This document shows positions 2,806 through 17,058 of a DNA stretch of 64,000 nucleotides, in pieces (position 1 is the first letter of the stretch; each line of letters starts with the position of its first letter). Under the pieces are notes generated by a model, which saw nothing but the letters and a program-made list of their open reading frames with translations, was not told where the DNA came from and did no database searches. The stretch comes from an uncultured Planctomycetales bacterium (GTDB taxonomy: Bacteria; Omnitrophota; Gorgyraeia; Zapsychrales; Fredricksoniimonadaceae), in assembly GCA_964572155.1 (NCBI GenBank), contig CAZNDZ010000001.1:143300-207299 (forward strand). The letters are read 5' to 3'. Both the position numbers and the translations under genes were made by a program.

Positions 2806-4413
2806 GTGTTCAACTCAAAAAAATCTACCCTGATTTGTTTTTTTCTACTCACTGTCCTGTGCGGCATTGTGATTCATTTACCCTATCACAATTTCCAAAG
2901 CTTTGTGTCGCAAGGTGATCATGGCCGTGATTTATACGCGGCGGCGGCTGTTTTACGTGGTGAGATGCCCTACAAAGATTTCTGGTGGGTGTATGGCCCC
3001 CTCATGCCGTATTATTACGGCTTATTCTTTAAAATCTTCGGCATTCATGTGCCTAGCATCTTGCTTGGTAAAATGATCCTCAATATCGGTGCTGGCTTAT
3101 GCATCTTTATGGCTGTCACCCGCTTCTTTTCCCCCATCGCAGGTTTTGTCGCTGGCCTTTGGTTTTTGGTGTATCACGCGGATTTCTTTTTTACCTATAA
3201 TCATGCTGGCGGCATCCTCTTACTCGTCGCTGCCATCTGGATGCATTGGTCTTACATTAAAACACAGCAATTTAAATATGCGGCATTGTCCTTGCTCATC
3301 GTTGGCGCCTTAGGTCTTGTTAAGATCAACTTTGCTATCACAACGCTTATCATGGGTATTTTAACAATCCTGATTACCCGCCGCCTTAATAACAAAAGCA
3401 TTGATACAGGTGAAAAAACATTCTACGCGCTTTCTATATTAGGGTTGCCGTTATTTTGGTTTGGGATTTATAGCATTTTTGTCCAAGGACTCACCATCAA
3501 TGAAATTCGCCAATGCTTACCTTACTTAGGTGGGGATGAACCTTACAATAATTTAGGGCCCCTGCAAACTATCCCGCAATTGATTACGATCATCCTTAAT
3601 AATATCCGCTCAACATGGATTAGTTTTGGGCTTTGTGTGTTGATATTGTTATCCACTATGAAAACATTGCTCGACTTAACAAAATCCAAAGACAAAACCC
3701 TAATGCTCATCATCGGTTACGCACTTTTGTTCTACGCGTTTAACTTGCATGAGTTTATTAAAAGCGGTGTGTTTTATCGGATGTTTTGGTCTCAACCATT
3801 CACCGTCCTTTTAACCTTTATCATGATTGCATCCGCCATCCAAAGCCTTGCCAAGCCCATCCGATTTATCGTGTGGTCTGTATTGTGTGTCATTGCCGCC
3901 ACCTCCGCGTGGCAAACAACAACATTTATCAATTCATATAAAACACCCGCGCATTATTTAGGCAGTAGCCGCGGCCAAGTTTACATCACCAACGACAGCA
4001 ATTGGCTGCAAACGGTGGTACTCACAACCAAGCAATTAAACATCAATTTTAAGAAGGACGAACTATTCTTAGCCTTACCGTATGATTGCCTCTATTACTA
4101 CTTAACCGATAAGAAAACACCGACGCGCCAATTAATCTTTTTTGACCATATTAAAATACCTTTGGAACAAGAAGGCCGCATCATTCAAAGCCTTGAACAA
4201 CAAAAAATTGCAGGTGTATTACTATCAAGCAGACATTCAGCAAAAGAACCTGGGCTTGGCACCATGGGCGTTACCTATTGCCCGATGATGGCGCAATACA
4301 TCAACACCAACTTCACGCCTTACGCCAAAATTGGTGACTGGATTAATGAACCTGGTTGGGCGTGGAATCATGGCACCTATATTTTCAAACGCAAAGAAGT
4401 CCCTCATGAATAA
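2806..4413 (+). CDS. polytopic membrane protein, paralog A of a tandem pair (putative GT-C glycosyltransferase-like)
   Basis: 535 aa; N-terminal TM then conserved QGDHGRDLY..LRGEMPYKDFWWVYGPLMPYY; C-terminal block LALPYDCLYYYLTDKKTPTRQLIFFDHIKI shared with the next gene. Confidence 0.6.
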   Translation: MFNSKKSTLICFFLLTVLCGIVIHLPYHNFQSFVSQGDHGRDLYAAAAVLRGEMPYKDFWWVYGPLMPYYYGLFFKIFGIHVPSILLGKMILNIGAGLCIFMAVTRFFSPIAGFVAGLWFLVYHADFFFTYNHAGGILLLVAAIWMHWSYIKTQQFKYAALSLLIVGALGLVKINFAITTLIMGILTILITRRLNNKSIDTGEKTFYALSILGLPLFWFGIYSIFVQGLTINEIRQCLPYLGGDEPYNNLGPLQTIPQLITIILNNIRSTWISFGLCVLILLSTMKTLLDLTKSKDKTLMLIIGYALLFYAFNLHEFIKSGVFYRMFWSQPFTVLLTFIMIASAIQSLAKPIRFIVWSVLCVIAATSAWQTTTFINSYKTPAHYLGSSRGQVYITNDSNWLQTVVLTTKQLNINFKKDELFLALPYDCLYYYLTDKKTPTRQLIFFDHIKIPLEQEGRIIQSLEQQKIAGVLLSSRHSAKEPGLGTMGVTYCPMMAQYINTNFTPYAKIGDWINEPGWAWNHGTYIFKRKEVPHE

Positions 4414-5971
4414 AAATAAAATCTTTCTGATTCTGATCATCGCCGTAGTGTTTTTGATGGGTATTTATAAACTAAATTATTACCCGCAACTCTCCCAAGG
4501 TGATCATGGACGAGATTTATATTCTGCTCAAGCTGCGTTGCGTGGCGAACTGCCTTACAAAGATTATTGGTGGGTCTATGGGCCTATCATGCCCTATTAT
4601 TTTGCTGTATTTTATAAGATTGCAGGATCAAGCATCGTCGGATTTCTACTTGGAGACCTTGTATTAAAAACAGCGGCGGCTGCCTTTTTTTATTTAGCCT
4701 GCGCACAATTTATCCCTGCGTTTGTTGCTTTTATCGGCGCTATTTGGTTTGCTCAATCTCAACCCGATTTCTTTTTTACTTTTAATCACGCGGGCGGCAT
4801 AACAACGGAATTATTTATCCTCTTCTGCCTTTTTGCCTTTATTAAAAACCGTACGCCCAAGTATTTATGGATGTGTTTGCCTGCCATCTTGATTTATTGC
4901 TGCATTAAAATCAATTTTGGCCTAGCGGCATTTGTCGTCGTGCTGTTAACAGCCGCTTGTTGCAAATTCAAAGAGAAGAAATTCTATATCGCAAGCGCGA
5001 TAACGATCGGTCTTGTGGCGTTGATCTATGGACTCTTATTACAGGGGCTTAGCATCGAAGAAATTCGCCAATGCCATCCCTATTTTGGCGATGACCAGCC
5101 TCATCATTTTCCGCCCAGCATGACAATTCCTTATTATTTCATGCAACACTGGCTAACCTTCGTGCATGGCCCGATCAATATGATCATGGGCCTTATCTTG
5201 CACAGCGCAACATTGATTGTCATCGTGCGTGTACTGCTTAAAAAAATCGAACCCAAGGATCAACAGCTGCTTTTTTCAGCTCTTGGCCTTTTAGCTGTGT
5301 TCTTTATTATTAATTTTCATGAATTCGTCGTCAGCGGCGTGTGGTATCGCACCTATTGGTCTTTGCCGTTTTTATTTGTGTTTCATTTCTTGATGATGTG
5401 GCAGGCATTTCGTATTTTCCCAGCCTTGGTGCGCGGGATCATCTGGGCGGCATTTGGAAGTTTGTTTGTCTTAAATATCTTAGCGGGCTTCTTTACAACA
5501 CAATCACAAAAGATCCCACCACGATTATTAACCTCCGTGCACGGTCAAATATATTTAGGCAATGAAATGGAATGGACACAGACCGTCAACACCGTCACAG
5601 ACTACTTAAATAAAAACCTTAAAAAGGACGAGACATTTTTTGCCCTGCCCTACGATGACATTTATTATTATTTAACAAACAAAAAAAGCCCGTCTAGGAT
5701 GCTCATCTTCTTTGATCACATTAAAATATTACCTGCGCAAGAAGTTGCCATCATCAAAGAATTAGAACAAAACAACGTGGCCTATGTGCTCATGTCGAAC
5801 CGCATCGCCTCAAGCGAACGTGGTCTTGGGATATTCGGAAAAACCTACTGTCCTTTAATTGCCGCCTACATCAATCAAAAATTCACACCTGTCGCACGAC
5901 AAGGCGGTGATTGGCAAAAAGAACCTGGTTGGGGTAATAATCACGGGGTTTTGATTTTAAAGCGAAGGTAA
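4406..5971 (+). CDS. polytopic membrane protein, paralog B of the tandem pair
   Basis: ATG at 4406 overlaps the upstream stop (ATGAATAA); the protein from MNKNKIFLILII shares QGDHGRDLY..LRGELPYKDYWWVYGPIMPYY and LPYDDIYYYLTNKKSPSRMLIFFDHIKI with paralog A; the ORF-track start at 4331 lies inside the upstream gene. Confidence 0.6.
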   Translation: MNKNKIFLILIIAVVFLMGIYKLNYYPQLSQGDHGRDLYSAQAALRGELPYKDYWWVYGPIMPYYFAVFYKIAGSSIVGFLLGDLVLKTAAAAFFYLACAQFIPAFVAFIGAIWFAQSQPDFFFTFNHAGGITTELFILFCLFAFIKNRTPKYLWMCLPAILIYCCIKINFGLAAFVVVLLTAACCKFKEKKFYIASAITIGLVALIYGLLLQGLSIEEIRQCHPYFGDDQPHHFPPSMTIPYYFMQHWLTFVHGPINMIMGLILHSATLIVIVRVLLKKIEPKDQQLLFSALGLLAVFFIINFHEFVVSGVWYRTYWSLPFLFVFHFLMMWQAFRIFPALVRGIIWAAFGSLFVLNILAGFFTTQSQKIPPRLLTSVHGQIYLGNEMEWTQTVNTVTDYLNKNLKKDETFFALPYDDIYYYLTNKKSPSRMLIFFDHIKILPAQEVAIIKELEQNNVAYVLMSNRIASSERGLGIFGKTYCPLIAAYINQKFTPVARQGGDWQKEPGWGNNHGVLILKRR

Positions 5972-5976
5972 GAAAA

Positions 5977-6050
5977 CGGGGCCGACGAGACTTGAACTCG
6001 CGGTCTTCAGCGTGACAAGCTGATGTGTTAACCAACTACACCACGGCCCC
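5977..6050 (-). tRNA. tRNA-Asp (anticodon GTC)
   Basis: reverse complement GGGGCCGTGGTGTAGTTGGTTAACACATCAGCTTGTCACGCTGAAGACCGCGAGTTCAAGTCTCGTCGGCCCCG folds as a cloverleaf; anticodon loop TTGTCAC; CCA not encoded. Confidence 0.85.
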
Positions 6051-6102
6051 AATAAGATTTCCAATTGTACCAAAGGTTGAGGTGATGTCAACCTAAAATT
6101 TT

Positions 6103-6693
6103 CTAACGGAATTTTGGGCTGATCAGCCCCAAGCTTATAACCATCTTAAAACCGTCTTGCACACTCCAACCTGGATCAATCACGCTCTTGGATTCTGCCA
6201 AATAAACAAAGCCGATCACAGGATGTGCCATCGGAATATAAACTTTATACCACTCTTGGCCACTATCTTTATCCATCACCTTACCTGCTAAAAATGCAAT
6301 GCTATATTGCTTGTTATTAGGATAATTGACCAAGACGGTCTTCTTGTAAACATCCCCGCCTTTTTTGCCTAAGATATCGCTAATCTGACGGGCTAATAAA
6401 TAAATTTGTCTAATAAATGGAATGCGCGCTGTGATGCGATCAAATATCTTTAACATGCGACGCCCTATAACATTAGTAACAACATATCCAATAAATAACA
6501 ATACAAACAAAAGGATAATAATACCAAGCCCCGGTATTTGGCGAACATCGAAATATTGATCTAGGAACACGACCACACGATGATCAATTAAATGTAATAA
6601 TAACTTAACAACAATAAAACAGAGAAGTAGTGGGATGATGGCAAACATGCCACGGATGATGTTGGTGCGAATATGAAGGAAGAAATTTTGCAT
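6103..6693 (-). CDS. DUF502 family membrane protein
   Basis: 196 aa; two N-terminal TM helices; conserved blocks IPFIRQIYLLARQISD, KTVLVNYPNNK and VYIPMAHPVIGFVYL typical of DUF502/COG2928. Confidence 0.75.
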   Translation of the reverse strand: MQNFFLHIRTNIIRGMFAIIPLLLCFIVVKLLLHLIDHRVVVFLDQYFDVRQIPGLGIIILLFVLLFIGYVVTNVIGRRMLKIFDRITARIPFIRQIYLLARQISDILGKKGGDVYKKTVLVNYPNNKQYSIAFLAGKVMDKDSGQEWYKVYIPMAHPVIGFVYLAESKSVIDPGWSVQDGFKMVISLGLISPKFR

Positions 6694-6711
6694 GTGAAGA
6701 GGTGAAGAAAA

Positions 6712-6764
6712 TGGGCGGTGAAGGAATTGGTGCCCCGACCTCTGTCGGGGTCATCCCCCCGCCC
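6712..6764 (-). other. tRNA-like fragment / pseudo-tRNA carrying a copy of the tRNA-Val 3' end
   Basis: minus-strand GGGCGGGGGGATGACCCCGACAGAGGTCGGGGCACCAATTCCTTCACCGCCCA; its last 22 nt equal the 3' end of the tRNA-Val 119 bp downstream; contains a 7-bp hairpin CCCCGAC/GTCGGGG. Confidence 0.4.
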
Positions 6765-6830
6765 TATAAACTGTTCCTAATCGTCACAGTTTATAAACAG
6801 GGCTCCCTTCAATTCCTTAAGAAATTAAAA

Positions 6831-6904
6831 TGGGCGGTGAAGGAATTGAACCCTCAGCCTATTGAATGTAAGTCAATTGCTCTAACCAATTGAGCTAACC
6901 GCCC
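6831..6904 (-). tRNA. tRNA-Val (anticodon TAC)
   Basis: reverse complement GGGCGGTTAGCTCAATTGGTTAGAGCAATTGACTTACATTCAATAGGCTGAGGGTTCAATTCCTTCACCGCCCA; anticodon loop CTTACAT; 5' end overlaps the stop of the permease gene by about 10 nt. Confidence 0.85.
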
Positions 6905-8349
6905 GAAAATTTACGCTGTAGCTTACTATTAAATCGTCCATATGTAAAGTAGATGATTAATCCGATGGCAAGCCAGATGATTAGGCGCCACCATGTTTCG
7001 CCGTCTAATGATGTCATCATGGCTAAACAAACGATGATGCCAAGGAAGGGAAAAAGTGGAAAACATGGCGTACGATAGGGTCTTGGGAGCAATGGTTGTG
7101 AATAACGTAACACCATAACGCCGGCGCAGACGATGATAAATGCCAGTAAGGTGCCGATCGATGTCATGTGGCCTAATTTTGAAATGGGGAAAAACCCGGC
7201 AAAAAAGCTAACGAAGAACATGAATAATAAATTCGAACGCCATGGCGTACGCCATGTGGGGTGAATATCAGAAAATAATTTTGGTAATAGCCCGTCGCGG
7301 GACATCGAATAAAAGATACGGGATTGGCCTAAGAGCATGACTAAGATGACCGACGTAAAACCTGCGATGATGCCACCCTTGATCATCAATTGTAACCATG
7401 GGTATGGGGTTAAATTAATCGCAGTGGCAACGGGCGCGGCATCCCCCTTCATGTCTTGATAATTAACCATGCCAGTTAAGACTGACGAGAACGCTAAATA
7501 AATTAAAGTGCAAATAGCCAACGAACCTAAGATGCCAATAGGAACATCTTTTTGGGGATTGCGAGATTCTTGAGCGGTGGTTGAAACTGTATCAAAGCCA
7601 ATGTAGGCAAAAAAGATAATCCCTGCGGCGCGCATGATGCCTGATATACCAAATTCACCGAAATGACCTGTGTTTGGTGGGATGAATGGAACATAATTAT
7701 TTGGATTGATGTAATGAATCCCGACAGCAACAAACGCTAAAACAACGGCTAGCTTGATCACAACAATGATCGAATTAACCCACGCAGATTCTTTGATACC
7801 TATCATCAATAATATAGACACAGCAACGATGATGAGCATGGCAGGAATGTTCACAATACCATGCCCGATCGTCCCATCGGCCAAGGTGATCGTATCAAAG
7901 GGGCACGCTGTAAATTGTGCTGGCAAGTGAATGCCAAAATCGCTAAGCAATGAACCAACATAACGCGACCAACTAACTGCGACAACCGACGAGGCAACCG
8001 CATATTCTAAGACCAAGTCCCAACCAATGATCCACGCGACAAACTCACCCATGGTTGCATAGGTGTATGTATAGGCGCTTCCAGCGACAGGGATCATAGA
8101 AGCCAATTCGCTATAACACATGCCTGCAAATGCACAGCCAATGGCCGCAACCATAAATGATAAAACCACCGCAGGGCCAGCATTCTCGGCAGCGGCAATA
8201 CCCGTTAAAGAAAATAAACCTGCACCAATGATTGCGCCTATGCCAAGTGATACCAAACTCCATGAACCAAGCGTGCGTTTAAGGGTATGCTCGCCGGACG
8301 TTGAATCTGCAATCATTTGATCAATAGGTTTTTTGGCAAAAAGGTTCAT
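6895..8349 (-). CDS. APC-family amino acid permease
   Basis: 484 aa; 12 TM helices; N-terminal signature SLVSLGIGAIIGAGLFSLTGIAAAENAGPAVVLSF. Confidence 0.85.
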   Translation of the reverse strand: MNLFAKKPIDQMIADSTSGEHTLKRTLGSWSLVSLGIGAIIGAGLFSLTGIAAAENAGPAVVLSFMVAAIGCAFAGMCYSELASMIPVAGSAYTYTYATMGEFVAWIIGWDLVLEYAVASSVVAVSWSRYVGSLLSDFGIHLPAQFTACPFDTITLADGTIGHGIVNIPAMLIIVAVSILLMIGIKESAWVNSIIVVIKLAVVLAFVAVGIHYINPNNYVPFIPPNTGHFGEFGISGIMRAAGIIFFAYIGFDTVSTTAQESRNPQKDVPIGILGSLAICTLIYLAFSSVLTGMVNYQDMKGDAAPVATAINLTPYPWLQLMIKGGIIAGFTSVILVMLLGQSRIFYSMSRDGLLPKLFSDIHPTWRTPWRSNLLFMFFVSFFAGFFPISKLGHMTSIGTLLAFIIVCAGVMVLRYSQPLLPRPYRTPCFPLFPFLGIIVCLAMMTSLDGETWWRLIIWLAIGLIIYFTYGRFNSKLQRKFSGG

Positions 8350-9062
8350 CCAATTTCCTCCAAAATGTTAATTGCCGCTTGCTTTGGATTTTTGTCTGCA
8401 ACAATGGGACGGCCTATGACCAGAAAATTGCTGCCACTTGCCAGCGCTATCGCCGGCGTTGCCACGCGTTTTTGATCCCCCACATCAGCGCCTGCAGGAC
8501 GAATGCCTGGGGTGACAATGATAAAATCTTTTCCTAAAGCTTTGCGCACCATGGCAGCTTCTTCGACGGATGCAACGATACCATCTAGGCCGCATGCCTT
8601 GGCTAATGTGGCACGCTCTAAAACAATTTGATCCAAATTATCTGTCTTGGCTTGACTGGTTAACACGGTCACACCGACGATCAAAGGCCTTTGTACGCCA
8701 AGCAAGGCGGCTTGCTCTTTAGCCGCTTGTGCGGCTGCCTTTAACATTTCTTCCCCACCTTGGGTATGCACCGTCATCATAAATAAGGGTGCAAAATTTC
8801 TATCTTGGTTTGGAGAAACGCTTAAACTAACGGCGCTTTTAACGGCACTAGCAACGGTGTTTGGAATATCATGGAATTTTAAATCAAGAAAAACCTTTTT
8901 ACCTTTAGCTTGAACATAACGCGTAACAAAAGGTCCATAGGCGGTAAATAATTGCGAGCCAATTTTAAAAATGTCAATGTGGTCCGATAACTCATCGATT
9001 AACTTTTGAGCTTTTTCAAAGGTGTCCACATCAAGGGCCACCATCAAGGGATTCGTTTTCAT
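8346..9062 (-). CDS. pyrF: orotidine 5'-phosphate decarboxylase
   Basis: 238 aa; MVALDVD..KIGSQLF..DLKFHDIPNTV active-site blocks. Confidence 0.9.
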   Translation of the reverse strand: MKTNPLMVALDVDTFEKAQKLIDELSDHIDIFKIGSQLFTAYGPFVTRYVQAKGKKVFLDLKFHDIPNTVASAVKSAVSLSVSPNQDRNFAPLFMMTVHTQGGEEMLKAAAQAAKEQAALLGVQRPLIVGVTVLTSQAKTDNLDQIVLERATLAKACGLDGIVASVEEAAMVRKALGKDFIIVTPGIRPAGADVGDQKRVATPAIALASGSNFLVIGRPIVADKNPKQAAINILEEIG

Positions 9063-9964
9063 CGCTGTACACTTCCAATCAAATCTTTAATGTCGTTGAT
9101 GTTATGTTCTTTCATATATGCCTCAATGCCCTCGAGCACTTCCATCGGTGCACGGGGATTAACAAAGTTCATGGTACCAACCGCCACCATTGACGCGCCA
9201 GCAATGATAAACTCAAGCGCATCTTGAGCGCTGGCAATGCCACCCATGCCAATGATGGGGATCTTAACGCGATTATAAACCTTATGGACCATGGCAACAG
9301 CGATCGGGCGAATGGCAGGACCTGATAGGCCACCGGTAAAATTACCAATCTTTGATCGACGGGTTTTAATGTCAATCGCCATCGCCGTAAAGGTGTTGAC
9401 CAAGCTCACCGCATCGGCGCCACCTTGCTCTGCAGCTAAAGCAATGTCACTAATGTCAGTGACATTGGGCGATAATTTGGCAATGACAGGAAATTTTGAA
9501 ACACCTTTGATGGCTTTTAACAAACTTTCCGTCGCTTGTGGATCTTGGGCGACCAAGGTCTTATGATTTAAGTTGGGGCATGACAGGTTAAGCTCAACAG
9601 CTGTGATACCTTCTTGAGAATTAATCTTTTCAATGATGCCCATGAATTGCTCGGGGGAATGGCCAAGGACGCTCACAATAAGCGGTACGCCGATCTTCTT
9701 AAATGATGGCAATTTATCTTTGATAAACCCGTCGATACCTGGGTTTTCAATCCCAATCGCATTAATCATACCCGACGGGGTTTCAACAATGCGCACCGGC
9801 TTATTGCCCACTTGCGCGGCAAAGGTCACGGTTTTGGGGATAATCGCGCCTAAATGTTTTACTTCTTCTAAATTAAAATATCGTTCCGCATGGCCAAAGG
9901 TACCTGAAGCCACGGTCACGGGATTTTTAAATTGGGCATTGCCTATCTTAATTGAAATATTCAT
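9059..9964 (-). CDS. pyrD: dihydroorotate dehydrogenase (class 1B) catalytic subunit
   Basis: 301 aa; NPVTVASGTFG..ETPSGMINAIGIENPG..LSCPN motifs. Confidence 0.9.
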   Translation of the reverse strand: MNISIKIGNAQFKNPVTVASGTFGHAERYFNLEEVKHLGAIIPKTVTFAAQVGNKPVRIVETPSGMINAIGIENPGIDGFIKDKLPSFKKIGVPLIVSVLGHSPEQFMGIIEKINSQEGITAVELNLSCPNLNHKTLVAQDPQATESLLKAIKGVSKFPVIAKLSPNVTDISDIALAAEQGGADAVSLVNTFTAMAIDIKTRRSKIGNFTGGLSGPAIRPIAVAMVHKVYNRVKIPIIGMGGIASAQDALEFIIAGASMVAVGTMNFVNPRAPMEVLEGIEAYMKEHNINDIKDLIGSVQR

Positions 9965-10740
9965 TAGTGAAATTTAACCTCATCCAACGGGAACGCTGGC
10001 CCGTCATAACATACTGTCTTAAATCCTTTGGTTGTTTCAATCGAACAACCCAAACATGCTCCTAACGCACAGGCCATGATTTCTTCGCAAGCGGCTTGCC
10101 CTTGCAATTGATGTTTGCCGGCAAATTCTTGAACGGCCTTCATCATGGGGTTTGGACCACAGGTATAGAGAAATGTGTTTTTAGGATTAACGTCGATCTT
10201 ATCAAACAAACCGCTCACGCGTCCTTTAAAACCAACAGAACCATCGTCGCTGGCTATATGCACTCGAACACCTAGTTCCTTAAAATCTGTTAAAGGATAA
10301 ACATGCGCGCGTGTCCGCCCACCGTAAATTAAGGTAAGGTCATATTTTAATTCTTTAAGTGCGTCCGACAAAATAAGCATGGGAGCAACCCCGATACCTC
10401 CGGCAATCATCACGACCTTTTTAATACCTGCAGGTGGTAAAACAAACGGCGTGCCTAAAGGACCTAAAACATCCAAGGTGTCGCCTTTTTTCTTTAATGA
10501 CAAGATCTTGGTGCCTGGACCTTTGACATCATAAAAGATGGAGACATATTTTTGTGCCCGATACACGCTAAATGGTCGACGGAAGAATGGTTCAAAGCCT
10601 GTTTCATTGGTGCGGATGTGCACAAATTGACCGGCCTTTACTTCTTGGGCAAGTTGCGGCGCATTAAATGTTAAGCGCCAATATTGCGGACACAATTTTT
10701 CGTTGCTGACAACCGTATAAATGTTTTGTATTTTTTCCAT
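9964..10740 (-). CDS. pyrK: dihydroorotate dehydrogenase electron-transfer subunit
   Basis: 258 aa; FAD/NAD-binding fold RPFSV..GGIGVAPM; C-terminal 2Fe-2S cysteine cluster CACALGACLGC. Confidence 0.85.
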   Translation of the reverse strand: MEKIQNIYTVVSNEKLCPQYWRLTFNAPQLAQEVKAGQFVHIRTNETGFEPFFRRPFSVYRAQKYVSIFYDVKGPGTKILSLKKKGDTLDVLGPLGTPFVLPPAGIKKVVMIAGGIGVAPMLILSDALKELKYDLTLIYGGRTRAHVYPLTDFKELGVRVHIASDDGSVGFKGRVSGLFDKIDVNPKNTFLYTCGPNPMMKAVQEFAGKHQLQGQAACEEIMACALGACLGCSIETTKGFKTVCYDGPAFPLDEVKFH

Positions 10741-10760
10741 AAGAAATTTAGTATATCAAA

Positions 10761-11564
10761 TTACCTTTGGCATTTCTTGCAATAAAATGTACTTCTTCCT
10801 GCCTGCACAATACGGACAATGGGTGTTTTACAGACGGTGCAAGGCTCATTGTCCCTCGCATAAACCTGTATGGCCTTATTGAAATTTCCTTTTTGCCCAG
10901 CCCCGTCACGGTAATTACGCATGGAAGAACCGCGCAAATCAATGGCATGTTGCAAAACATCCCGTGTCTTCTTTAAGAGCAGTGGTATTTCTGTTTTTCG
11001 AATCTGTTGTGCAGCCCTAGTTGGATTGATCTTGCTTTGAAACAAGATTTCACTGGCGTAAATATTACCAATACCAGCGACGAAGACATGATCCAGTAGG
11101 ACGCTTTTAATTGGGCGCGATGTCTTTTTTAAACATGCGCCTATGTAATTTTCATTAAACCCTTGTTCAAATGGCTCGGGTCCCAACAGACTAAAGTGTT
11201 TGATCTCTTTGAGATCCTTAACCACACGCAGCTGCCCAAAGACACGTTGATCGTTATATAAAAGTTTGGTTTTATCGAGGCTGAAATGAATGTGGCTATG
11301 TTTATCGGCTTGGCCGTTTACAACCAGCTGGCCTGTCATCATGACTTGCACAACAAGGAATTCACCACCGCTTAAGACAAAAACCAACGCTTTTCCTCGT
11401 CGACGAATCGCTTCAATAGTCTGACCTTTTAAACGATTAACAAAATCTTTTGTGGGTTGACGCAAGACACGATCATCTTTCACATCAATTGAAATAATGC
11501 GTTGGCCTTGGATGGTTTTTTCTAAATCACGTCGAATGGTCTCTACTTCAGGTAGTTCAGGCAT
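10761..11564 (-). CDS. mutM: formamidopyrimidine-DNA glycosylase
   Basis: the canonical N-terminus MPELPEVETIRRDL must follow the initiator Met (catalytic Pro2), so the start is at 11564, not the ORF-track 11591; C-terminal zinc finger CTVCKTPI..FYCKKCQ. Confidence 0.9.
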   Translation of the reverse strand: MPELPEVETIRRDLEKTIQGQRIISIDVKDDRVLRQPTKDFVNRLKGQTIEAIRRRGKALVFVLSGGEFLVVQVMMTGQLVVNGQADKHSHIHFSLDKTKLLYNDQRVFGQLRVVKDLKEIKHFSLLGPEPFEQGFNENYIGACLKKTSRPIKSVLLDHVFVAGIGNIYASEILFQSKINPTRAAQQIRKTEIPLLLKKTRDVLQHAIDLRGSSMRNYRDGAGQKGNFNKAIQVYARDNEPCTVCKTPIVRIVQAGRSTFYCKKCQR

Positions 11565-12030
11565 GTTGTAATTTCTTGATGATCTTCTCAATTTTTTCTT
11601 GAGCTTCGTCTAAATTCTTAACCTCAATCATCCCATTGATCTTCCAATTACCTAAATCAATGACGGGACGGCCATAGACCAGCGCATAACAAATTTCAGA
11701 ATTGGTGCCATAGCTGCCCGGTAAAGCAATGACAATGTCGGCGGCACAGGCAACAATGACGTTACGGGAATACCCGATCGACGTCGGCAGGGCAATATCT
11801 ATATACGGGTTCGCATCCGCTTTATCTTTGCCTGGCAAAATGCCAATCGTTAATCCGCCGGCTTTCTGAGCACCCTCTGCCGCAGCTTCCATCGCCCCAC
11901 CCAAACCACCGCAAATTAAAATGCAATCAAGTGAAGCAATCATCCGCCCAACCTTCATGGCTAAATCTTCAACCTTGACGCTAATGGAACTACCACCTAT
12001 AACCGAAATCGTAATCTTCTGTTTTCTCAT
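11557..12030 (-). CDS. TIGR00725 / LOG-family Rossmann-fold protein
   Basis: 157 aa; ISVIGGSS..GGLGGAMEAAAEGAQKAGGLTIGILPG signature. Confidence 0.65.
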   Translation of the reverse strand: MRKQKITISVIGGSSISVKVEDLAMKVGRMIASLDCILICGGLGGAMEAAAEGAQKAGGLTIGILPGKDKADANPYIDIALPTSIGYSRNVIVACAADIVIALPGSYGTNSEICYALVYGRPVIDLGNWKINGMIEVKNLDEAQEKIEKIIKKLQHA

Positions 12031-12060
12031 ATCTACTTTCTAAAATTAAAGACCAACAAA

Positions 12061-12132
12061 CGCGCCCGGCGGGACTCGAACCTGCATCGACAGCTCCGGA
12101 GGCTGTTGCCTTATCCATTAGGCCACGGGCGC
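12061..12132 (-). tRNA. tRNA-Arg (anticodon CCG)
   Basis: reverse complement GCGCCCGTGGCCTAATGGATAAGGCAACAGCCTCCGGAGCTGTCGATGCAGGTTCGAGTCCCGCCGGGCGCG; anticodon loop CTCCGGA; embedded inside the pyr operon. Confidence 0.8.
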
Positions 12133-12137
12133 AAAAA

Positions 12138-13415
12138 TTATGCCTTATAGACAACTTTCCCGCCGCAAATCGTGGCACATACGTGACCTTTTAATGTCCA
12201 TCCGATAAAAGGAGAGTTTTTTGACTTTGAAACAAAGCCTTCTTTGGTGACGACCCACTCTTTATCTTCGTCGATGATGGCAATATCGGCATCCATCCCC
12301 TCTTTGATCGTGCCTTTGTTGGTTAACCCAACAATGCGGGCTGGTGCGGTCGACATTTTCTCAACTAATTTTGGTAAATCAATGTGTCCTGGTTTTACTA
12401 GTTCTTTGATCGTTAAACCTAGTGAGGTTTCTAAACCAATCAACCCAAACGGCGCTCCGTCGAAACCAACTTCTTTGTCTTCATTGGTATGCGGCGCATG
12501 GTCGGTGACGATGCAATCGATCGTGCCATCGACAATCCCTGCAATGATGGCATCCACGTCAGATTGCGCACGTAGCGGCGGATTAACTTTTGTCGATGTA
12601 TCAAAACCTGCACAGGCCTCGTCGGTTAATGCAAAATGATGTGGGCACGCTTCAGCGGTTACTTTAATCCCTTGGGCCTTAGCCTGACGGATGAGTTCAA
12701 TCGAACGCTTGAGCGACATATGACACAAGTGCACCCGTGCATCTAAATAATTGGCAATCTCAATGTCGCGCGCAACCGTGACCGTTTCTGCAATTCCTGG
12801 GTCGCCTTTTAAACCAATGCGCGTGGAAACTTCACCTTCATTCATGACACCTCCAGCGGTAAGCAAAGGATCTTGGCAATGTTCGATGATCAAAAGATCT
12901 AACATCTTGGCATATTCCATGGCCAGACGAAATAAGCGGCTATTGAGGACCGATTTGCCATCATCAGAAAGCGCCAAACATCCTGCCGCCTTAAGCTCTG
13001 ACATATCGGTTAACTCGCCGTCATTTTGACCCTTGGTGATGGCGCCAATAGGATAAACATTGCATAAACCAACTCGCCGGGCTTCGCGAATAATGAATTC
13101 AACAACCATCGCATTATCGGTCACAGGTGTTGTATTTGGCATGCAAAAAATTGACGTAAACCCACCTTTGACAGCCGCTTTCGATCCTGTTTCAATGGTT
13201 TCTTTATCCTCACGCCCAGGTTGGCGCAAGTGCACATGGATATCAATGAGGCCCGGTAAAACTTTTCTATCTTTAGCATCGACAATCTCATGCTTGTCAT
13301 TGGCAATCGCAGGGGCAATTTTTACAATCTTGCCGTCTTCGCATAAAATATCTTGGGGCTTATCCCAAATCTTATCGCTGTTAACAATCGTTGCATTCTT
13401 AATCAGTAATCCCAT
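12138..13415 (-). CDS. pyrC: dihydroorotase
   Basis: metal-binding DIHVHLRQPG and downstream His/Asp blocks; preferred start is ATG at 13415 (MGLLIKNATIV), giving a TAAtATG junction with pyrB; the ORF-track start at 13436 is a TTG. Confidence 0.9.
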   Translation of the reverse strand: MGLLIKNATIVNSDKIWDKPQDILCEDGKIVKIAPAIANDKHEIVDAKDRKVLPGLIDIHVHLRQPGREDKETIETGSKAAVKGGFTSIFCMPNTTPVTDNAMVVEFIIREARRVGLCNVYPIGAITKGQNDGELTDMSELKAAGCLALSDDGKSVLNSRLFRLAMEYAKMLDLLIIEHCQDPLLTAGGVMNEGEVSTRIGLKGDPGIAETVTVARDIEIANYLDARVHLCHMSLKRSIELIRQAKAQGIKVTAEACPHHFALTDEACAGFDTSTKVNPPLRAQSDVDAIIAGIVDGTIDCIVTDHAPHTNEDKEVGFDGAPFGLIGLETSLGLTIKELVKPGHIDLPKLVEKMSTAPARIVGLTNKGTIKEGMDADIAIIDEDKEWVVTKEGFVSKSKNSPFIGWTLKGHVCATICGGKVVYKA

Positions 13416-13416
13416 A

Positions 13417-14920
<1,504 letters not shown>

Positions 14921-14978: not shown

Positions 14979-15006
14979 TTGCCTTATTGTGATTATGTTT
15001 TATACT
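14979..15006 (+). promoter_or_regulatory. sigma70-like promoter TTGCCT-16nt-TATACT placed for a leaderless transcript
   Basis: the -10 hexamer ends 6 nt before the ATG at 15013 and no SD precedes it, consistent with leaderless initiation. Confidence 0.3.
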
Positions 15007-15012
15007 TTAACT

Positions 15013-16254
15013 ATGAGACCACGTATCCTAATAGGACTACTTGCAGCAACCACCATTCCTCTCATTGCCTACGCCGGCACCTTAACCATGACTACCTATT
15101 ACCCAGCACCAACCGGTAATTACGACGTCCTAAACGCCAGCTCAATCGGCATCGGCACGGTCACAACCCGAGACAGACTAACTGTCGCTGGCTCTGGAAC
15201 TGGATATGCAGTAATCGGAGGATTAACCGGTTGTGGTTCAAATGTTACTGGTATTCAATTGAATGGCTCAGCGCTTACCTGTAATGACCATAATATGTCT
15301 ATGAATGGCAATAACCTAAGAATAAATAGGCCCAGTACTGGCACCATTATATTTAGACATGATAACAGCACTCAAATGACGCTCGATGCTACTGGAAACC
15401 TCGGTATTGGCATAACACCAACTAGTTTATTGCATGTAAACGGCGCTTCCAACCTTGTTGGTGCTGTAACCATGGGAAGCACTGCCAGTATTGCTGGAGC
15501 TGCAACCATCACAGGAGCTACCACACTTAATGGGGTTACAACGCTCAACAATAGCACAACTGCCAATAGTAATTTTACTGTTGCAGCTGGTGGTTTATCC
15601 GTTAATGCAGGTGTTGCAACCACCTTAAGCGGACCAGCCACCGCAGCAAATGGATTAACCGTTAGCGCAGGTGGTCTTGCAGTTACAGGTGCTACATCAA
15701 TAACTGGCAATACAACCATCACAGGCAATGCAAGCGTGTCTGGCACAACCACCCATACAGGTGCAACAACCTTAACAGGCGGCATTAACGGTGGCGCTAC
15801 TGTTAATACTGGAAATCTTACAGTAACTGTAGGTAATCTTGCTGTTAACGCTGGCAACCTCACGGTTGGCGGCACATCAACATTTACAGGCGCTTCTACA
15901 ATAAATAACAGTCTAACGGTAACTGGCAATGTGTCTGCCAATGGATTTTTCTATTCTTCTGACAAGCGCTTAAAAACACAGGTACAACCCATTTTCGACC
16001 CAATAGAAAAAGTAAAACAGCTCAAAGGTGTCACGTTCCGTTGGAAAAAAGATCGCAAGAAGTCTGTCGGTATCATTGCCCAAGATGTTGAAAAAGTATT
16101 TCCCGAACTTGTCCATACTGACAAACAAGGCATGAAATCTGTCGCATACCCTAACCTCATTGGCCTCTTGATTGAGACCACCAAAGAACAACAAAAACAA
16201 ATCGATGCGCTCAAAAAAGAAGTTGCCCAATTGCGCAAAGAGATAAAAAGGTGA
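15013..16254 (+). CDS. secreted phage tail-fibre-like protein with C-terminal intramolecular-chaperone (peptidase S74) domain
   Basis: signal peptide MRPRILIGLLAATTIPLIAYA|G; long G/T/N/A-rich beta-helix-type repeats (TGATTLTGGINGGATVNTGNLTV...); C-terminal SDKRLK autocleavage motif followed by VGIIAQDVEKVFPELV and a coiled coil. Confidence 0.75.
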   Translation: MRPRILIGLLAATTIPLIAYAGTLTMTTYYPAPTGNYDVLNASSIGIGTVTTRDRLTVAGSGTGYAVIGGLTGCGSNVTGIQLNGSALTCNDHNMSMNGNNLRINRPSTGTIIFRHDNSTQMTLDATGNLGIGITPTSLLHVNGASNLVGAVTMGSTASIAGAATITGATTLNGVTTLNNSTTANSNFTVAAGGLSVNAGVATTLSGPATAANGLTVSAGGLAVTGATSITGNTTITGNASVSGTTTHTGATTLTGGINGGATVNTGNLTVTVGNLAVNAGNLTVGGTSTFTGASTINNSLTVTGNVSANGFFYSSDKRLKTQVQPIFDPIEKVKQLKGVTFRWKKDRKKSVGIIAQDVEKVFPELVHTDKQGMKSVAYPNLIGLLIETTKEQQKQIDALKKEVAQLRKEIKR

Positions 16255-16398: not shown

Positions 16399-17058
16399 AT
16401 GCCACGTCGCGCCCGCATTGTTCTACCCGGTTACTTTCATCACGTAACTCAACGAGGAAACTATCAGCAAAATGTATTCTTAAGCAATCAAGATCGAGCA
16501 GTATATTTAAAATACATTGATGAAAATGCTCAAAAATATGGTCTGAACATTTATGCTTTTTGCTTAATGGACAATCACGTACACTTTATTGTGACCCCTA
16601 TAAGCAAAGATTCACTTTCAAATACTTTTCGTGTCGCTCATCAACGATATGCTTTGTATGTAAATAAAAGAGGTCGACAATTGGGGCACCTATGGCAATC
16701 TCGTTTCTACTCCTGCATCTTATTAGGAGAACACATTGCCCGCGCTATTCGTTACGTAGAACGTAACCCAGTACGAGCAGGATTGGTAAATAAACCGGAA
16801 GATTTCTTATGGTCTAGCGCTCGATCACATTTTGGGAAAAGATATAGAATAATATCCTTAACTGATATCCCAAAATATATTACTGTTGAATCTTGGAAGA
16901 AATACCTTACAAGTGAAGATGCGCCTGAAGATTTGCAAGAAATACGAGCTAATACACTTCAAGGAAAAGCTTTTGGAAATGTAAACTCCATTGAAATTCT
17001 AGAGAAACAAATTGATAGAAATTTAGTGTTTTGCCCTCAAGGAAGACCTAAAAGATAA
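16399..17058 (+). CDS. REP-associated tyrosine transposase (RAYT, IS200/IS605-like Y1 HUH transposase)
   Basis: 219 aa; MPRRARIVLPGYFHHVTQRGN, HUH motif NHVHFIV, catalytic-Tyr block RYVERNPVRAGLV. Confidence 0.8.
   Translation: MPRRARIVLPGYFHHVTQRGNYQQNVFLSNQDRAVYLKYIDENAQKYGLNIYAFCLMDNHVHFIVTPISKDSLSNTFRVAHQRYALYVNKRGRQLGHLWQSRFYSCILLGEHIARAIRYVERNPVRAGLVNKPEDFLWSSARSHFGKRYRIISLTDIPKYITVESWKKYLTSEDAPEDLQEIRANTLQGKAFGNVNSIEILEKQIDRNLVFCPQGRPKR

Follow-up and report, generated by a model that had tools for sequence, protein, structure and literature searches.

Why does a bacterial genome carry the 3' end of a tRNA gene twice, with one copy just downstream of the other? The question is raised by a 64-kb stretch of Candidatus Omnitrophota DNA, the whole of which is referred to here as the window. 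Within it the 22-mer AAAATGGGCGGTGAAGGAATTG occurs at 6708-6729 and again at 6827-6848, on either side of a segment that separates tRNA-Val from a gene for a DUF502 membrane protein. The copies are separated by 97 nt. The window contains no third copy, even with three mismatches allowed. The chance expectation for the match is 0, and it was found in 0 of 100 dinucleotide-preserving shuffles. A sequence-only reading of the locus had noted both copies, and had proposed either a scar left by an integrase or a decayed tandem tRNA. We favour a different answer. The repeat appears to mark the ends of a structured, tRNA-derived RNA module of ~120 nt that is inherited vertically in a clade of Candidatus Omnitrophota, is maintained by selection and acts in cis. 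We judge this account to be probable rather than certain. The module probably influences the tRNA-Val-DUF502 transcript, by way of its processing, its stability or the control of its expression.

ARAGORN and Rfam both identify the tRNA, and the copy at 6827-6848 comprises its final 18 nt (C56 to discriminator A73) followed by four trailer bases, TTTT. The assignment of this copy to the tRNA-Val 3' end in the sequence-only reading was therefore correct. So was its description of a 53-nt fragment with acceptor-like ends and a hairpin around the other copy: the fragment opens with GGGCGG, which is the 5' acceptor strand of tRNA-Val itself, and contains a 7-bp hairpin. Two further features had been overlooked. 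First, an 11-nt segment, AAGGAATTGAA on the minus strand, is a perfect complement of the T-loop and the 3' strand of the T-stem of the tRNA. We call this segment anti-T. Nine of its bases (AAGGAATTG) additionally complement CAATTCCTT in the fragment copy. Second, a 10-bp hairpin precedes the fragment. Hence, the 137 nt from tRNA-Val to DUF502 run in the order U/A-rich linker, anti-T, purines, 10-bp hairpin, fragment, 18 nt and ATG. Comparable repeats were not found at tRNA-Arg or tRNA-Asp of the window. Coordinates are collected in the table below.

Relatives of the locus were recovered with the DUF502 protein as anchor, from metagenome contigs and metagenome-assembled genomes labelled Candidatus Omnitrophota. 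A genome scan by DUF502 alignment gave three loci, with the window's own genome not among them. Loci are referred to by L numbers. The full module is present in the window, L002 and L003 (DUF502 78% identical), L004 to L006 (71%), L007 (65%) and L013 (49%). L010 (64%) has a partial spacer, which retains anti-T and the 10-bp hairpin and has lost the fragment. Two loci are empty: tRNA-Val is separated from the ATG by 17 nt in L017 (DUF502 70% identical) and by 15 nt in L018. The fragment is thus present in the window, L002, L004 to L006, L007 and L013, and absent from L010, L017 and L018. The same-strand order tRNA-Val, DUF502, tRNA-Asp is found in the window, L002, L004 to L006, L010, L013 and L018. 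On the short contig of L017, tRNA-Val immediately precedes DUF502. L007 differs; only the 3' part of tRNA-Val is left and two extra genes separate it from DUF502. The tRNA-Val sequence of the window is identical in L002, L004 and L010. Directly after tRNA-Val, L017 encodes CCA (CCGCCCA-CCA-TTTT, positions 36-52), which no other lineage does.

The module is conserved against a saturated background. At third codon positions of DUF502, the window is only 41-44% identical to its relatives. Conversely, the module-bearing spacer from tRNA to ATG is 93% identical to that of the window in L002 and 84% identical in L004. The 97 nt from one repeat to the other, and also the fragment, show 84-93% identity between genomes. 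The module can still be clearly aligned to L007 and L013, and its loops and junction remain recognisable in L013. Neutral decay, whether of a scar or of a pseudogene, is ruled out because the spacer is conserved while synonymous sites are saturated. Hence, both the neutral scar and the decayed tandem tRNA are rejected.

The second of these deserves a fuller statement. It supposes that a second tRNA-Val once lay downstream and decayed to a functionless pseudogene, in which the D arm, the anticodon arm and one half of the T arm are gone. The GGGCGG acceptor strand and the 3' 18 nt of tRNA-Val do occur in the correct order, as such a history would leave them. However, no relative has two intact tRNA-Val genes; each has one tRNA-Val or one partial copy. 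The fragment is not scored by the tRNA covariance model (no match to RF00005 at 6712-6764, even at E <= 10), nor is it detected by ARAGORN. The truncated form, with the same C56 boundary, is common to lineages that share as little as 49% DUF502 identity, and the ends of the fragment are invariant where neutral sites are saturated. The lost interior has been replaced by a hairpin that is itself maintained. Neither anti-T nor the 10-bp hairpin is explained. We consider this history the least credible of those discussed here.

Other identities for the module were considered. A covariance model of the module finds one copy per locus and none elsewhere in 138 kb of sequence from the window and relatives. 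The module therefore does not behave as a dispersed repeat of the MITE (miniature inverted-repeat transposable element) or REP (repetitive extragenic palindromic) kind; it is single copy in the window and occurs once at each related locus. A scan with Rfam 15 of the window region, L004, L007 and L013 matched only tRNAs, and so gave no RNA family for the module. A T-box or other riboswitch class was discarded on the same grounds. A small conserved open reading frame (ORF) was also discarded: the ATG at 6754 is CTG in L002 and indels break the frame. When metagenomes were searched with the tRNA 3' end plus anti-T motif, three matches were returned, all by chance and inside unrelated sequence. 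A plus-strand ORF, 6702-6893, had been dismissed as spurious in the sequence-only reading and we agree. It is antisense to the tRNA and module, and relatives carry indels of 1-2 nt across it. In the protein database it matches nothing beyond the call from the same genome and a single further ORF, the latter solely over the part antisense to the tRNA.

The five full modules share a consensus fold. RNAalifold predicts a three-way junction with helices P1, P2 and P3. P1 joins anti-T to the 3' strand that derives from the tRNA. P2 consists of the first hairpin and a basal extension, and has a conserved purine-rich loop. P3 is the second hairpin and its sequence is variable; L013 has the same stem as the window, and L004 and L007 have differing, longer hairpins. 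In single-sequence folding, the junction is the minimum-free-energy structure, or close to it, for L004, L007 and L013. For the window and L002 it is no more than ~4 kcal/mol above the minimum. Over the whole fold 92% of alignment cells are paired, compared with 35-50% after a shift of the partners by one to three columns. Similarly, double-sided changes are seen at six pairs in the whole fold and at 0-1 in the shifted controls. For P2, which can be followed in six lineages, 100% of cells are paired, compensatory double changes occur in 5 of 10 pairs and the loop GACGA..AG.A is fixed. P3 has two pairs with double changes. Taken together, the covariation counts agree across three helices and, for five related sequences, are suggestive of a maintained RNA fold.

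The same alignment bears on whether the hairpins are read as DNA instead. The hairpins might serve as a protein operator, or as folded single-stranded DNA resembling attC sites or the ends of IS200/IS605 insertion sequences. The 10-bp arms of P2 do form a perfect inverted repeat around 11 bp, and a gene for an IS200-like Y1 transposase lies ~10 kb away (16399-17058, plus strand). However, G-U pairs are tolerated (18 are present) and the tRNA-sense strand fits the fold better than its complement (175 of 190 cells against 162 of 190). Stems change, and the loop and junction purines are fixed. In addition, the module is single copy in all sequence examined (the window and related loci) and has no terminal features of IS200/IS605. 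A DNA-level role is thus very unlikely. The Y1 transposase itself, at 219 aa, is longer than is typical of IS200 and might be of the REP-associated type. Hairpin repeats matching that type were not seen near tRNA-Val.

The module also keeps pace with the tRNA. In five of five lineages the tRNA-derived block starts at C56 and matches the tRNA of its own genome with 100% identity, the match continuing over 0-11 nt of trailer. The shared C56 start points to a single origin of the block. Anti-T is conserved in all six lineages that keep a trailer. The most informative case is L013. Here, the tRNA ends in CGAGTCCTACACCGCCCA, compared with CAATTCCTTCACCGCCCA in the window, so that three positions of the block differ. 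The L013 fragment has all three differences. Its anti-T reads GUGUAGGAC, with complementary changes at two of the three positions, and so fits the T-stem of that genome. The remaining tracked position is unpaired with anti-T. Hence, P1 pairing alone does not explain the identity of copy and tRNA. Either likeness to the tRNA is selected directly, or the sequences are homogenised locally by gene conversion or templated correction of inverted repeats.

Can the same observations be reconciled with integration? This would make the repeats the attL and attR sites of an element that entered tRNA-Val between the T-loop and 3' end. The module would be an old scar, or a cargo-less mini-element with joined attP, similar to cis-mobilisable elements. 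For a mini-element, an integrase encoded elsewhere would still insert and excise the DNA, and the conserved interior would be recombination-arm sequence. The geometry that the sequence-only reading recognised is indeed that expected after insertion by a tRNA-targeting integrase. Unique DNA is bracketed by direct repeats, each made of 18 tRNA nucleotides from the T-loop onwards and 0-11 nt of trailer, and the two copies are 100% identical in every lineage. The empty sites that had been suggested as a comparison also exist and are precise. Thus, L018 can be set against L013 (85% protein identity, 82% at third codon positions, and the same tRNA) and L017 against the clade of the window. In both L017 and L018, the short flank is homologous to sequence 3' of the fragment in module carriers. 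Assembly collapse does not account for these sites; the repeats (18-29 nt) are shorter than the k-mers commonly used in assembly, and each empty-site contig represents a separate organism that has substitutions of its own. Patchy occurrence combined with high conservation is also typical of mobile DNA.

Furthermore, tRNA-Val is a demonstrable target in this clade. In L007 (contig CAZFNI010000034.1), positions 1166-1837 encode a 178-aa C-terminal fragment of a tyrosine integrase, truncated by an insertion sequence (HTH_Tnp_1 and rve genes). This gene fragment is ~95 nt upstream of what remains of tRNA-Val, which starts at C32 in the anticodon loop. Here the same tRNA has a genuine integration junction, albeit one of a different class, and the module that follows downstream is intact. 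The two genes between module and DUF502 in L007 are glycine-rich and have no assigned function.

Several results conflict with integration. The sequence-only reading had proposed to look for an integrase. In the window, Pfam found neither an integrase nor another recombinase, apart from the Y1 transposase, among 16 ORFs (a set without the three pyrimidine-biosynthesis genes at 8346-10740 and a giant ORF), and the clade's own integrase gave only chance-level tblastn matches. Searches of phage, plasmid and viral-contig sequences found nothing. For viral contigs, these scans used the 22-mer, the P2 core, the fragment pattern and the tRNA 3' half. The module occurs once per locus in a constant place, and its divergence rises broadly with that of the host. 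The internal anti-T follows the host tRNA, which target duplication cannot explain. From the tRNA 3' strand to its inverted complement is 13-32 nt, which clashes with a fixed recombinase core and suits an RNA loop. Helices vary by complementary substitution, including U-G wobble, as expected of RNA and not of protein half-sites. The interior is constrained and structured, unlike foreign or neutrally decaying cargo. Finally, the partial deletion in L010 could not be produced by excision, and deletion between direct repeats of 18-29 nt explains L017 and L018 equally well without a recombinase. We regard integration, in either version, as unlikely. The module may have originated by ancient insertion at the tRNA T-loop. 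Conversely, "remnant" is rejected as a description of its present state, given the conservation, the compensatory changes and the tracking of the tRNA by both copy and complement.

We return to the structured RNA module and how it might work. The position of the module suggests a role in the transcript. Scans of the window, L002, L004 and L013 found no sense-strand promoter-like or terminator-like site inside the module. A promoter in the module was accordingly set aside, there being no consensus match in the four lineages. DUF502 is most simply expressed by read-through from tRNA-Val, because the module has no internal promoter or terminator site and the ATG of empty sites is 15-17 nt from the tRNA. 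In such a scheme the module would be co-transcribed with tRNA-Val, and processing of the tRNA 3' end would generate the 5' end of the DUF502 mRNA. After the tRNA 3' cut, the three-way junction would form the 5' end of the downstream RNA.

The 3' end of the module may add a second feature. GGGCG at the fragment 5' end can pair with CGCCC at its 3' end in all five lineages, and neither sequence varies. If this pairing forms together with P1, a continuous 3' strand, CAAUUCCUUCACCGCCC, would be paired over 17 nt by two separate segments. The resulting pseudoknot could extend P1 to a 17-bp helix that imitates the stacked acceptor and T stems of tRNA-Val, with the same discriminator A at its end. 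In module carriers this discriminator-like A lies 8-35 nt before the AUG. It may therefore take the position that the real tRNA 3' end has in module-less relatives, so recreating the local context. A second cleavage site for tRNA-processing enzymes could then define the mRNA 5' end, and identity with the tRNA would be kept by mimicry, or by local gene conversion or templated correction. The most specific form of this proposal is a bacterial counterpart of t-elements and mascRNA. Here, enzymes of tRNA maturation would recognise a pseudoknotted mimic of the tRNA-Val acceptor/T-stem. Cleavage past the discriminator-like A would set the DUF502 mRNA 5' end and free a stable RNA of ~120 nt whose 3' end is that of tRNA-Val, perhaps CCA-tailed; selection for mimicry would force the tracking. 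We offer this version as speculation with a small chance of being right.

A different role at the transcript level is termination. The GGGCGG...CCGCCC stem around P3, followed by AUUUU, might stop or throttle transcription that passes from the strongly transcribed tRNA into DUF502. As an attenuator, P1 and the base of P2 would alternate with the acceptor-like stem. The window, L002 and L007 do have a long G+C-rich stem followed by a U-run, and the G-run of the fragment has two mutually exclusive partners. When pairings were forced for the window and L002, two competing structures differed by no more than ~4 kcal/mol. However, terminator scans found nothing in the module of the window, L002, L004 or L013. 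In L013 the fragment is followed by no U-run (CAUUAAAGGG), and in L004 by nothing more than UUCUUUAU, which leads straight into the AUG. Termination also leaves unexplained why the 3' strand should be identical to the tRNA. Thus, for the module as a whole we think it improbable, though in the window clade the module might have a variant role as terminator or attenuator.

A number of points count against the cis-acting RNA module that we prefer. Co-transcription, cleavage and an effect on DUF502 are inferred throughout. Just five full sequences are available and these are mutually related, so that the covariation is suggestive and not statistically strong. Both double changes in P1 come from L013. 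GGGCG:CGCCC never varies and so shows no covariation, and a sixth pair is lost in L004 and L007, where position 6 is A. The G-run, moreover, has an alternative partner that extends P2. The model needs no identity with the tRNA beyond P1, unless mimicry or gene conversion is invoked. The module is also dispensable: it is absent from L017 and L018, truncated in L010, and apparently absent from one more clade. The latter has a differing, A/T-rich spacer of ~127 nt, a state deduced only from a translated antisense ORF. Lastly, the L007 module is intact despite a truncated tRNA and a DUF502 gene 2 kb away. Some lineages have lost the module, cleanly or in part.

Table. Positions of the module, its parts and neighbouring genes in the window.
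Feature	Position	Strand	Remarks
Whole module (119 nt), from first base past tRNA to discriminator-like A of fragment	6712-6830	minus	Three-way-junction consensus fold
Anti-T AAGGAAUUGAA, 5' strand of P1	6808-6818	minus	All 11 nt complement the tRNA T-loop and T-stem 3' strand; the 9-nt subsegment AAGGAAUUG complements CAAUUCCUU in the fragment copy
Conserved purine-rich junction GGGAGCCC, next after anti-T	6800-6807	minus	
P2 hairpin, 10-bp stem UAUAAACUGU / ACAGUUUAUA, 11-nt loop GACGAUUAGGA	6765-6795	minus	Loop consensus GACGA..AG.A
Fragment (53 nt)	6712-6764	minus	GGGCGG, G-run, P3 hairpin, CAC and 18-nt copy of tRNA 3' end
P3 hairpin, 7 bp	6733-6750	minus	CCCCGAC-AGAG-GUCGGGG
Repeat copy 2, CAAUUCCUUCACCGCCCA followed by UUUU	6708-6729	minus	3' strand of P1, then tail CGCCCA, invariant in all lineages
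Repeat copy 1, tRNA nucleotides C56-A73 (18 nt) and trailer TTTT	6827-6848	minus	
Pyrimidine-rich spacer (18 nt), fragment to DUF502 start codon	6694-6711	minus	No Shine-Dalgarno sequence; corresponds to the 15-17 nt after the real tRNA in module-less relatives
tRNA-Val (anticodon UAC)	6831-6904	minus	No encoded CCA; ARAGORN; Rfam tRNA, 74.1 bits
DUF502 membrane-protein gene, downstream of module	6103-6693	minus	Pfam PF04367, E = 1.4e-23
tRNA-Asp, next after DUF502	5976-6051	minus	
Amino-acid permease gene, upstream of tRNA-Val	6895-8349	minus	
Three pyrimidine-biosynthesis genes, upstream of permease	8346-10740	minus	

The locus is part of a co-directional array (5976-14346, minus strand) that contains tRNAs Arg, Val and Asp, pyrimidine-biosynthesis genes, fpg, the permease and DUF502. 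The pyrimidine genes include those for aspartate carbamoyltransferase, dihydroorotase, dihydroorotate dehydrogenase and orotidine monophosphate decarboxylase. The permease frame ends in tRNA-Val, with its TAG stop codon falling inside the opening 10 nt of the tRNA gene (GGGCGGTTAG, 6895-6904). The equivalent stop in L004 is just ahead of the tRNA. Between the DUF502 stop and tRNA-Asp is a near-consensus promoter-like site (6064-6091, minus strand), with TTGACA, 16 nt and TACAAT (11 of 12 matches) and a TG motif. This site suggests that tRNA-Asp has its own promoter.

Further from the module, about two thirds of the window is occupied by a single giant ORF of 13,416 codons (23676-63926, minus strand). 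Two paralogous, overlapping membrane proteins of ~540 aa each are encoded at 2806-4413 and 4331-5971 (plus strand), and match the PMT_2 glycosyltransferase family weakly. The pair adjoins a YfhO-like gene (736-2781), and is adjacent in L002 and L004 too. A 421-aa protein (14989-16254, plus strand) has a C-terminal Peptidase_S74 (endosialidase chaperone) domain, of a kind usual in phage tail fibres. Its gene adjoins that of the Y1 transposase.

In summary, the locus appears to hold a new, narrowly distributed, structured RNA module derived from tRNA, which probably acts in cis. It would give an uncultivated phylum a well-defined candidate RNA motif that Rfam does not contain. It may also represent an unusual event for bacteria, the copying of a tRNA portion into an adjacent transcript region where it has since followed the changes of the tRNA. 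Two questions can be put to the module: whether pieces resembling tRNAs act as punctuation in bacterial mRNAs, in the way known from organelles, and whether it is selection or templated correction that keeps short local repeats the same. For annotation, it is a caution: a duplicated tRNA 3' end accompanied by empty sites resembles an att scar, and can be a conserved functional element.

Known systems share some properties with the module. Integration into tRNA genes is said to have a T-loop sublocation, with an identity block that runs from the T-loop through the 3' end. Like the attL and attR sites of tyrosine-integrase islands, the repeat starts at C56, covers the tRNA 3' end and a few further bases, flanks unique DNA and is matched by precise empty sites in relatives. 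Unlike those islands, the module has no integrase and only 97 nt between its repeats, and its interior is conserved, structured and subject to compensatory change. Within that interior, a complement of the repeat changes along with the tRNA. The real integrase junction of L007, in the anticodon loop, also differs from the T-loop start of the module. As in a tRNA pseudogene or partial duplication, the fragment holds both acceptor strands of the neighbouring tRNA. Unlike a pseudogene, the module is constrained, follows changes in the tRNA and sits within a larger conserved fold.

Bacterial tRNA spacers and trailers can be functional. The 3' external transcribed spacer of E. coli leuZ, for example, reportedly acts as a sponge for small RNAs. 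The module is likewise a conserved RNA directly downstream of a tRNA, presumably in the same precursor. Unlike the leuZ spacer, it is highly structured, is partly a tRNA copy and precedes a protein gene, and there is no evidence of targets for pairing in trans. Turnip yellow mosaic virus has a valine-accepting tRNA-like structure in which the acceptor arm is built by way of a pseudoknot. If GGGCG:CGCCC forms together with P1, the module would similarly be a pseudoknotted acceptor/T-stack mimic, ending in the discriminator A of tRNA-Val. It differs in being internal to the transcript and not 3'-terminal, in lacking a mimic of the anticodon domain and in the invariance of its pseudoknot pairs.

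Animal mascRNA, from MALAT1, is a case related to t-elements. The t-elements of plant mitochondria are tRNA-like structures at mRNA ends that direct cleavage by RNase P and RNase Z (Forner et al. 2007, PMC1920247). They retain an intact T-arm motif, GGTTCRANYCC, and the cox1 t-element folds like a tRNA (PMC1920247). The fragment departs from this pattern. It begins at C56, and so lacks the 5' strand of the T-stem, U54-U55 and hence an intact T-arm, and it is not scored by the tRNA covariance model. Conversely, the tRNA-derived sequence of the module lies directly upstream of an mRNA start, in a transcript that would also contain real tRNAs. Its ends resemble those of an acceptor stem, and the distance to the AUG is that of the real tRNA in relatives. 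By this comparison, the t-elements of plant mitochondria appear to be its closest described analogues.

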